Source: Mytilus edulis (taxonomy: Eukaryota). Taken from it: a stretch of 64,000 nucleotides of DNA. The stretch lies in the NCBI RefSeq assembly GCF_963676685.1, contig NC_092348.1, forward strand, positions 55,800,001-55,864,000, written 5' to 3'. Below are positions 46,401-49,400 of this stretch, one piece after another. A program made the position numbers. Positions within the stretch are counted from its first letter, which is position 1. Each line of letters begins with the position of its first letter.

Positions 46401-49400
46401 ATGACTGGTACACCATTCTCTAAAAATGTGTGCAGCTCTTATTAACTCTCATAACTTTGCTTCCGCAAAAATACCGGTATATTGTAGCTATTTATTTCTT
46501 AACTGTACACAAATTCCTCCATGTACAGTACGCATCTGTACATTTGCAAGGAGGTGTAAATTTTTAAAGGAGAGACAAAAGATACCAAAGGAACGATCAA
46601 ACTCAAAGGCGCAGCCATAGCGAAAATCGAAAGTTGACGAGAACACAAACAGCAGTCCACATAACACAACATAAAAAAATAAAAACTTAGCAACACGAAA
46701 CCCAATAAAAAACCTGCTAAATCCTGTTAATGTTTATATTTGTGTAATGCACAATGTTATGCTGTTCTTAGACAGTTGGTGGCAATCCCATGAATCTGTT
46801 TATGTCAACAAGCAATATTAAAATACCTACTTCAGCTATCAGAAACTAGGGTTTCAAAAGTTGAGACATGTTGACTGAAATGGTTTATAAATACATTATT
46901 CTGTCCAGTCGGATGGGTTTGTGTATTCTAATTTTAATACCTTATTTTGGTCTACTGAGCAGTTATTTTATACACCAAAAATATAATTTTTAGGACCAGA
47001 GAATTAATAAAACAACAAAATCTTAACATTTACCAATGAATCATGAACCATGAAAATTTAGGTAAACTTTGAAAAAGTGTTATTTCGTTTTTTTACAAAC
47101 AAAATTTGTTTACCAACCTTAAAATCAAACGATGTGTTATGTTTATATACATATGCACGTTCATGGCTCTTCGATCTGTCGATACCTGTATCGTGGCATT
47201 GCACAAGGTTATGTTTTCCGTGACTGTCTTTGCACTAAATCCATTGGATGTTGGGTGTGTACTGATTGACGTTTTAGTCTTAGATGTATGTTTTTTTAAC
47301 ACCGCCGCATTTTTGCGCCTGTCCCAAGTCAGGAGCCTCTGGCCTTTGTTAGTCTTGTATTATTTTAATTTTAGTTTCTTGTGTACAATTTGGAATTTAG
47401 TATGGCGTTCCTTATCACTGAACTAGTATATATTTGTTTAGGGGCCAGCTGAAGGACGCCTCCGGGTGCGGGAATTTCTCGCTACATTGAAGACCTGTTG
47501 GTGACCTTCTGCTGTTGTTTTTTCTATGGTCGGGTTGTTGTCTCTTTGACACATTCCCCATTTCCATTCTCAATTTTATTTTTAAAGTTATTTTTATTTG
47601 TTGTTATTGGCTTCGAACTAGCTGTCAGTAAGAATGAATACTCTCAGATCTGTACTTAAGTGTCATTTATTGTGGTGATACGAAGTAAAAGTACCCTGCC
47701 ACGTCCACTCTGTGTTTTTGTTATCTCTACCTCTGATGAGTTTAGAAATATTCAACTGATTTATATTATGTTTTACTGTTACATCAGTGTCCCAGGTAAG
47801 GGAAGGGTTGACGTTTTCAAACTAGTTTAACCCCATCACGTTCTGTACGTGCCTGTCCCAAGCCAGGAGCCTGTATTTCAGTGGTTGTCTGGTTTGTTGC
47901 TGTGTTTCATATTTGTTTTTCGTTCATTATTTTTACATTAATCATATAGAGTCCTTTTATAGTTGAATATGCGATATGGGTTTTGTACATTGTCGAAGGC
48001 AGTACGATGGCCTGTAGTTGTTTATTTCTGAGTCATTTGGTTTCTTGTGATGAGTTGTCTCATAGGCAATCATACCACATATTCTTGTTCCTATATATAC
48101 TCTTTTGTTGTAAACGTTAGTTCCGTCACATACCAGTTCAAATACTAAAGATTATCTGTTTTATTCCATTTTTTATTTCTCAAGATAAATTTACAATATC
48201 AAATGTAAAAGTTATTAAAAATACAGTTCATAAAAGTAATTTATATATTTCAAATGATTATTTTGATACATTATTTAAATCGGCCTGAATTTAGTTTCAT
48301 CTGAAAGTTTTCATGATTTTTTATGCAAATTCTGTCAAAATATTTCGGTTTTCCCCGCAATTTGTCTATTTCTCTCCTATCGTTTCAATGATTTGCCATA
48401 TATGGCGATCCTTGTCTTGTAACATTTCCAAAACTTCATCGGTGAGATCAGACTTTATTCCATTTTCAAGTTCAAATTTGTACATTTGTTCCGGTGAGAA
48501 AGACAGATATTCAGCCCAGCGCTTTACCAGTAGAGACATCGTATGCTGCAACAAAGCATTGTATCGAACCTCCTCTTGAAAGTCTCTGTTGAATTTCTTC
48601 CATTCTTTTTGTTTTGTTTCGTTATCATTTACCGACTTTGATACTTCATCAGGACTACGAGATTCATCTTTTGTCTGTTTTTCACATTGTCCTTCCGTTT
48701 TTGGTTCCTGCATCAATATTTCCTGTTTTAGATTCTTTTCTGGAGAAGTAACATCTGAACGTGATACAACCATATTTGACACCGGAACTAGTTTTGCCGT
48801 TGTAATCTGACCTGAATTACTGTCGTCACTTGCAAGTCTGAGTTCAAATTGAACAACCTTGGATGCCCCTGAACTTCCACTCGAATCCAAATCAGACAAA
48901 GCAGTCAGATTTATCATATTTTGAAAGCATTGCTGAATAGAACTGGCATCGAGTCCTTTTGCGTCAACTTCTTTCTTTTTTCCAGACACGTTGATCTGAG
49001 AACTTACACTAGTAGTACTACAACTACGTGGAGGTGGTGGTATTTCGTTCGAAGGACCCAAATACTGATGATCTAACAGTATGCTAACACTTTGGTTAAC
49101 GTTTATCTCCGATAAGCTCATCATTATCTGTCCTCCTATTTTATACAGCTTCCGCTTTGCAACGTTTTCAGGACTTTCTTCCAGTTTTCTTTCTTGCTTT
49201 GACGACAACAGTTCCCGACGTCATAGTATATTTTGTAATTCTAAATGCAAGCCAAGACTTCATCTCTCATTCAATCATTGATAGAAAATAAAATGACATG
49301 TTTGAAAATTTGTTTTCAATTAAAATACCGATTACCATCTAAGCCAAATTATCAACAAAACGTTGAAGTTCTCAGTAAGAAAATACTTAATTTCTGTGTC

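Follow-up and report, generated by a model that had tools for sequence, protein, structure and literature searches.

The DNA analysed here is a 64,000-nt stretch of the Mytilus edulis genome (contig NC_092348.1, forward strand, positions 55,800,001 to 55,864,000), called the window below, with coordinates counted from its first base. It is AT-rich (GC ~0.33) and repeat-dense. Among its repeats are three copies of a family A, which from its sequence appears to be the 3' end of a Naiad-type Penelope-like element (PLE), comprising the tail of a reverse transcriptase (RT), a SECIS-like hairpin and a 3' untranslated region (UTR), and copies of a non-coding family B. Both families contain a module predicted to be a twister ribozyme of type P5. 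The shortest family A copy lies within a family B element, and its first base is the one just 3' of the predicted cut, within an ambiguity of 3-4 bases. The features concerned are the following.

10397 to 11235, plus strand: long copy 1 (A1), 5'-truncated 3' end of the putative Naiad-type PLE, inside a 172-nt tandem repeat
10397 to 10597, plus strand: last 66 codons and stop codon of the RT-containing open reading frame (ORF), 94% identical to the C-terminus of protein P0002
10911 to 11004, plus strand: type-P5 twister module of long copy 1, predicted scissile bond between U10955 and A10956, 101.9 bits with covariance model R1
10912 to 10921 and 10993 to 11002, plus strand: the two strands of stem P5
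10925 to 10928 and 10958 to 10961, plus strand: the two strands of stem P2
10929 to 10933, plus strand: loop L1, GAGGG
10964 to 10975, plus strand: stem P3
10976 to 10991, plus strand: stem P4 with loop L4
45364 to 46306, minus strand: long copy 2 (A2), 99.4% identical to long copy 1 and ~103 nt longer on its 5' side, into the ORF (to ~46306)
45595 to 45688, minus strand: twister module of long copy 2, first base after the predicted cut (A+1) at 45643
47250 to 47934, plus strand: family B element B1, non-coding, ~400 nt without its insert, recipient of the insertion
47290 to 47297, plus strand: GTTTTTTT, where the interrupted family B sequence ends, also the upstream candidate for a target duplication, its last three T being microhomology
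47298 to 47578, plus strand: short copy, corresponding to the predicted 3' cleavage product from A+1 to the element 3' end CTCAATTTTA (88.6% identity; BLAST)
47298 to 47346, plus strand: 3' half only of a twister module (AA, 3'-side partner strand of P2, L2, P3, P4/L4, 3' strand of P5)
47579 to 47586, plus strand: TTTTTAAA, 8 extra bases past the canonical 3' end, in neither long copy
47587 to 47595, plus strand: GTTATTTTT, putative downstream candidate for a target duplication, from the B1/B2 alignment
47787 to 47880, plus strand: decayed twister module of B1 itself, cut between U47828 and A47829
34221 to 34607, plus strand: family B paralog B2, without the insertion, which serves as the empty site
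34455 to 34555, plus strand: twister module of B2, cut between U34499 and A34500
11226 to 11235 (plus), 45373 to 45364 (minus) and 47569 to 47578 (plus): the 3' end CTCAATTTTA in long copy 1, long copy 2 and the short copy

According to both BLAST and global alignment, homology between the short copy and long copy 1 covers 47295-47578 and 10953-11235. From A+1 onward, 47298-47578 pairs with 10956-11235, and 248 of 280 columns are identical over 10956-11233 in the global alignment. The identity to long copy 2 (45646-45363, minus strand) is 89%, and the three copies have their 3' end in common. The homology opens where TTT meets AAC, and 5' of this point the short and long copies are unrelated; R1 gives 35.5 bits over 47269-47346, where unrelated sequence takes the place of the 5' half. 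Having neither this half of the module nor an ORF, the short copy keeps neither a complete ribozyme nor coding capacity. The initial annotation had described a copy of ~283 nt resembling family A that starts at 47298, just 3' of the bond between U and A, and had equated it with the predicted 3' cleavage product of a longer copy; both descriptions hold, the start within the 3-4 bases mentioned. It had taken the longer copy for a short family A repeat, but this copy comes from the end of a protein-coding retroelement and is truncated on its 5' side.

The short copy is a true insertion, with target sequence flanking it on both sides. The segments 47250-47298 and 47575-47934 are contiguous in the paralog at 34221-34607 (BLAST), and in a gapped alignment B1 reads TTTTTTT, then the family A copy, then TTTTTAAAGTTATT, where B2 has nothing. 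The claim that the copy interrupts family B at a T-run was thus confirmed. The run comprises seven T (47291-47297), the last three of which are also present in the long copy (GTTT before AAC). The flanking GTTTTTTT and GTTATTTTT possibly represent a degenerate target duplication, although the T-rich context makes this unprovable.

A similar stretch is present in the downstream flanks of long copy 1 (TTGATTGGACTTCAAC, 11245-11260) and of the short copy (TTATTGGCTTCGAAC, 47605-47619), 10-25 nt from the insertion points and not in the flank of copy 2. It could reflect a target preference or chance.

The module of long copy 1 follows the stop codon by ~315 nt and precedes the element 3' end by 280 nt. 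The Rfam model Twister-P5 (RF02684) aligns to 10925-10991 over its full length (model positions 1-58; search limited to 10900-11010), with the same order of parts, namely P2 strand, GAGGG, P1 region, UAA, P2 strand, GC and P4 hairpin, and with the termini in P5. In family A the GAGGG of L1, UAA, GC and the L4 sequence GUCCCAAG are all in register with this model. Outside the model, GGCUAGAGGU (10912-10921) pairs with GCCUCUGGCC (10993-11002) to form P5. The minimum free energy fold recovers P5, P3 and P4 (-38 kcal/mol for 94 nt, z = -2.74). Circular permutation aside, the layout agrees element by element with the Schistosoma mansoni twisters listed in Table 1 of PMC8501958. We had considered a new circular permutation of twister, open between P4 and L2, and rejected it: RF02684 matches end to end, and the supposed closing helix is P5.

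As a separate observation, in several families the P1 region (GAGGG to the cut) is made up of a pair of short palindromes or mini-hairpins, such as GAGAUCUC with AAACAUGUUU, GGGCCC with AACCGGUU, and UCCCAUGGGA with AAAAGAGCUUUU. They occur at 10934-10955 of the window and, in related loci introduced below, at ~810-832 of L001, ~4581-4605 of L009 and ~3410-3430 of L006. Being of even length, these palindromes could allow pairing between two RNAs, which recalls the hammerheads of PLEs reported to act as dimers (cited in PMC6765202).

A covariance model, R1, was built from four window copies, and 38 loci with Naiad-like RTs (L001-L038) were taken from an RT-alignment scan of a collection of bacterial and archaeal genomes. 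The assemblies are labelled as bacteria or metagenome-assembled genomes, several of them bivalve symbionts, and some contigs are 0.5-1.6 Mb long; the loci seem to be DNA of invertebrate hosts that was deposited under bacterial names. R1 detected 13 further modules (E<0.01) in 12 of the 38 loci, all on the RT strand and covering the full model. BLAST with the module of L021 added 8 loci that the speed filters of R1 had dropped, giving 20 of 38. The module lies 135-503 nt past the end of the RT match in 18 of these 20 loci and upstream of the RT in L001 and L021. L004 carries a module on either side of a single RT gene, at a distance of 3541 nt from each other, as in a tandem or pseudo-LTR (long terminal repeat) arrangement. 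Across families only the module aligns, roughly from -42 to +41 relative to the cut.

The module is not universal. With the filters of R1 off, 10 loci were searched and only L009 gave a match; L008, L010, L014, L015, L024, L034 and L037 are without the module, and L033 and L036 gave no match either. Deletions that removed it were found in the downstream copy of L001 (between 4477 and 4478; -140 to +92), in L024 (-242 to +116) and in L034, L037 and L038 (~-46 to +170). Rfam gave no match to the covaried variants in the related loci. A regular expression written for the canonical L4 motif gave no twister among the 38 loci; the pattern was too strict because L4 covaries.

Covariation was examined at two scales. 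Among the four window copies (MAFFT alignment), 84.9% of cells are paired, compared with 28-45% when partners are slid, and 8 pairs show double changes. Among 16 distinct copies, 90% of cells are paired versus 30-40% when slid, and 21 of 22 pairs have changed on both sides; this alignment was fitted to the model, which favours the pairing figures. For the pseudoknots we used our own parse and dropped the short copy and X24, a decayed module of the window, which lack an L1 strand. The pseudoknot T2 (L1 with L4), parsed in 14 distinct copies, is paired in 41 of 42 cells, a level that 0 of 5000 shuffles equalled; its triplet types GGG:CCC, AGG:CCU, GGU:ACC and GAG:CUC are all fully complementary. 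T1 (L2 with L4) is paired in 24 of 28 cells (GC:GU, AC:GU and CC:GG), with 53 of 5000 shuffles as good. All groups retain AAG in L4 and the AA that follows the cut, and the T2 triplets, nearly invariant in known twisters according to PMC5408937, vary.

Stems P2-P5 and both pseudoknots thus covary across independent element families. We conclude that the module is a genuine twister fold under selection and a predicted ribozyme, in line with the ribozyme that had been proposed at the bond between U and A, where cleavage itself is predicted. Because the fold is conserved and covarying, the predicted scissile bond, U10955 to A10956 in the twister model, is set independently of the short copy.

The parent of family A was identified through protein relatives. 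P0002 is a 435-residue RT-like protein that stands for 133 member sequences and is 48% identical to residues 616-980 of P0025. Relatives of ~1000 residues (P0025, P0040 and P0078) have a GIY-YIG domain at ~aa 107-222, and P0040 and P0078 have an RVT_1 match at ~aa 625-857. This order, GIY-YIG followed by a C-terminal RT, was seen in the relatives only, the window holding just the last 66-100 codons. The permuted order defines the Naiad/Chlamys clade of PLEs (Craig et al. 2021, PMC8557442). Named relatives come from the pearl oyster Pinctada imbricata. The window copies are solo, with no tandem or pseudo-LTR arrangement among them, and long copy 1 shows no clear target duplication in the 172-nt tandem repeat. 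A common 5' end of the two long copies, suggestive of a second processing site, was rejected since tblastn extends copy 2 to ~46306.

From this material we consider it rather probable that a transcript of the element cleaved itself between U and AA and that the 280-nt 3' fragment was copied into a nick in family B. The parent would be a Naiad-type PLE transcript with a type-P5 twister in its 3' UTR. Because the termini of a type-P5 twister lie in P5 and the cut falls mid-motif, self-cleavage would split the motif. The RNA freed in this way would have a 5'-hydroxyl, start with AACCCC and retain the element 3' end, which would be the part on which the element RT primes in target-primed reverse transcription. 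Reverse transcription of this 280-nt RNA to its very end at the family B nick, followed by joining at the T-run, would yield 47298-47578. With no ORF, no promoter and only the 3' half of the ribozyme, such a copy would be a dead-end by-product. The main role of the ribozyme is likely to be the cutting of read-through or tandem transcripts, by analogy with hammerheads in other PLEs.

The same junction might have arisen by ordinary 5' truncation, in which, as is usual for copies of this kind of element, the RT stopped early on uncut RNA, the end was joined through T-run microhomology, and the coincidence with the cut is due to chance. We regard this as unlikely, though by no means negligible. 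Truncation is the rule here: long copies 1 and 2 end 559 and ~662 nt upstream of the cut, so that with the short copy the three family A copies form a normal 5'-truncation series, and a fragment in L032 (1620-1697) starts at +69. Three T are common to both sides of the junction, and there is one clear case only. The caveat of the initial annotation, that T-run microhomology could produce the boundary in what is a single copy, therefore stands, with at least 3 T of microhomology offered by 48 of 836 positions. On the other hand, four start positions would yield the observed junction, which gives 4/837 (0.5%) over the length of copy 1 and ~0.1% over a full Naiad of 3.4-4.4 kb; if at least 3 bases of T microhomology are required, the chance becomes 1/48 (~2%). 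In addition, the twister fold gives the position of the cut site independently.

It seems quite improbable that the RT stalled on the twister fold or that the upstream part was lost later through deletion or rearrangement. The module is a stable pseudoknotted fold with the folding energy given above, and relatives have lost it (downstream copy of L001, L024, L034/L037/L038). Nevertheless, an enzyme moving 3' to 5' should stall at the 3' edge of the fold, near +45 as it enters, and not at A+1 after passing P5, P4, P3 and P2. The deletions in the relatives do not end at the cut, and family B sequence lies on both sides of the copy, as for a simple insertion. Barely plausible is a separate short non-autonomous family of 280-nt units with its own 5' end and transcription and a shared 3' sequence. 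The short copy is 11% diverged from both long copies, and for PLEs PMC8557442 describes, in connection with Chlamys, non-autonomous relatives whose 3' parts are shared. Against such a family, the first 49 bases of the unit are half of a module that is whole in every other copy seen, only two halves were found among ~25 modules in the descriptor scan, and no second such copy exists within the window. The short copy thus probably stems from cleaved RNA that re-entered the genome, and not from a complementary DNA that had stalled or been truncated.

Several observations weigh against this conclusion. The junction is ambiguous by 3-4 bases of the T-run (47295-47298), or up to 47299 if the target duplication contains the A; one mismatch and one indel separate GTTTTTTT from GTTATTTTT; and the 8 bases of TTTTTAAA 3' of the element end are unexplained. 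As the short copy is 11% diverged, its source ribozyme may not have been intact. With respect to the motif, RF02684 scored 23.4 bits, below its gathering cut-off of 37.6 (E 0.0023 in a 111-nt search), the L009 module gave no Rfam twister match, B1 gave only a partial one (twister-P1, P3+P4 part, 17.1 bits) and B2 none. In family A, P1 could form no more than a hairpin of 3 bp with a loop of 4 nt. Family A also departs from RF02684 in having two mini-hairpins instead of P1, in its score and in the T2 triplets that covary in related loci. P1 is reported to be dispensable and G.U wobbles to be tolerated in PK1 (PMC5408937, PMC11662667), which would allow for such imperfections.

The scarcity of copies that start at the cut also counts against it. 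Two additional modules of the window, both detected with R1, enter this comparison.

35946 to 36040, minus strand: X36, decayed family-B-like twister module
24006 to 24107, minus strand: X24, strongly decayed family-B-like module, 5' half too decayed to parse

In the 246.6 kb of sequence surveyed, 6 fragments have a visible 5' end, and among them one clear and one confounded case start at the cut. The others start elsewhere: A1 at -559, A2 at ~-662, the L032 fragment at +69, and the minus-strand copy of L012 at -20 or further. The confounded case is at 5639 in L036, where homology starts at -2 to +3 (from -2 against L029). It was rejected as a second clear case because a repeat of at least 5.6 kb occupies its 5' flank. 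This repeat is 97% identical to L033 and common to both loci through TTAAG, past which the downstream flanks of L036 and L033 differ; judging from the sequence, another large element may have inserted into the TTAA of a complete Naiad. Two apparent boundaries were discarded, namely the L012 minus-strand start at -20, which is a decayed whole module, and a repeat in L005 starting at -3, which is a tandem duplicate of a whole module. The descriptor scan, in which ~25 whole or half modules were recognized by eye, gave only two halves, the short copy and L036. The other six modules of the window (A1, A2, B1, B2, X36 and X24) keep both halves and would thus appear to be copies of uncut RNA, which implies that most templates were uncut or that only uncut lineages propagate.

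The initial annotation had concluded that the self-cleaved RNA is itself a retrotransposition template and that the locus is genomic evidence for cutting in vivo. This reading is supported in part: the fold, the insertion and the precedent of Perere-3 (below) speak for it, and the recurrence of one clear and one confounded case among 6 does not add to it. In vivo cutting is therefore a good inference and not a demonstration, given one clear case, an ambiguous junction, a degenerate duplication and a motif below the cut-off.

That ribozyme cuts set the 5' ends of retroelements is already known, from HDV-like (hepatitis delta virus) ribozymes and from the twister of Perere-3, as are canonical PLEs with pseudo-LTR hammerheads. 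For the RTE-clade element Perere-3 of S. mansoni, target-site duplications lie directly against the AA of the twister cuts (Liu et al. 2021, PMC8501958). Its T-variant twisters belong to the same ribozyme class with the same core layout, and its copies, too, begin at the AA 3' of the cut with the target abutting, which has been read as a footprint of cleavage before retrotransposition. However, the Perere-3 ribozyme is of type P1 and located at the 5' end of the element, whereas here it is of type P5 and in the 3' UTR of a PLE. New copies of Perere-3 are functional because the cleaved RNA keeps the whole ribozyme and coding region (PMC8501958); here cleavage would divide the ribozyme in two, and what was copied is a non-coding tail of 280 nt. 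RTE elements with truncated 5'-terminal twisters have also been mentioned as 'in preparation' (PMC7761336).

Similarly, self-cleavage sets the 5' end of the reverse-transcribed RNA in R2, RTE and L1Tc elements with HDV-like ribozymes (PMC6765202, PMC8501958), although these are reported as another class, cutting at their own 5' edge in other elements, and as a productive step. The hammerheads of canonical PLE pseudo-LTRs and of animal non-LTR retrozymes resemble the present module in being small ribozymes on the sense strand of the terminal, tandem-forming part of a PLE (PMC8557442, PMC6765202, PMC7761336, bioRxiv 10.64898/2026.07.22.740005). For them, too, the proposed role is the cutting of tandem or read-through transcripts, and non-coding relatives, here family B, have the same module. 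In contrast to PLE hammerheads, the class found here is twister.

According to PMC8557442, bivalve genomes are dominated by Naiads, which differ from other PLEs in lacking canonical hammerheads; as the most abundant bivalve PLEs they have been read as evidence that PLEs thrive without a ribozyme. The word 'twister' is absent from that paper. Consistently, no part of the window reached the gathering score of an Rfam family, hammerhead included. Bivalve twisters have been predicted, with a focus on type P1 (PMC11662667). Our literature search found no twister in PLEs or Naiads and no copies of 3' cleavage fragments, but the list of Roth et al. 2014 and supplementary files were outside its scope, which leaves priority uncertain. 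We put forward tentatively, as a possibility about which we are somewhat more doubtful than about the origin of the short copy, that Naiads, described as ribozyme-free, have in their 3' UTR or pseudo-LTR a conserved twister of type P5 in place of the hammerhead, that it cuts in vivo, and that copies such as that at 47298 are fossils of the cut RNA. The motif may have been overlooked because its covarying pseudoknot triplets push it below the Rfam thresholds.

The role of small ribozymes in PLEs is unsettled, and a conserved twister at the equivalent position would reverse the argument drawn from ribozyme-free Naiads, with the function kept and the ribozyme class swapped. Copies that start at the cut would offer a purely genomic read-out of germ-line cleavage, testable in assembled bivalve genomes; if the proposal is true, a genome-wide count of copies like that at 47298 would gauge the activity of the ribozyme in the germ line. 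The covarying T2 and T1 triplets also broaden the sequence space for twister searches.

Other observations concern the element and its surroundings. A SECIS_1 match of 30.9 bits (cut-off 35, E 7e-4) lies at 10652-10716, 55 nt past the stop of the PLE ORF, and given the 99.4% identity the same stretch should be present at ~45948-45884 (minus strand) in copy 2. No in-frame TGA occurs in the 66-100 ORF codons present in the window. Selenoprotein-coding Naiads with a SECIS directly after the stop have been described in clams (Craig et al. 2021, PMC8557442). A further Naiad-like RT fragment at 39336-39443 (plus strand) is 58% identical to residues 892-927 of P0040. Five Naiad-like relatives (P0032, P0035, P0041, P0124 and P0129) have a precomputed ubiquitin C-terminal hydrolase domain (PF00443), which adjoins GIY-YIG in P0032 and P0041. 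In family B, a candidate hammerhead at 47735 and 34391 (CUGAUGAG motif) was rejected, there being no GAAA at a workable distance and no Rfam match.

Elsewhere in the window, tandem repeats of ~172, 159 and ~500 nt occur at 10258-10395, 11234-11471 and 19698-19916, and also at 42401-42877 and 27391-28335; the ~172-nt repeat is the target of long copy 1. The repeat families D1, D9 and D10 suggest a duplication with a spacing of ~7964 nt (52764-55332 and 60836-63296), within which a 300-nt stretch is 100% identical between 52992-53291 and 60956-61255.

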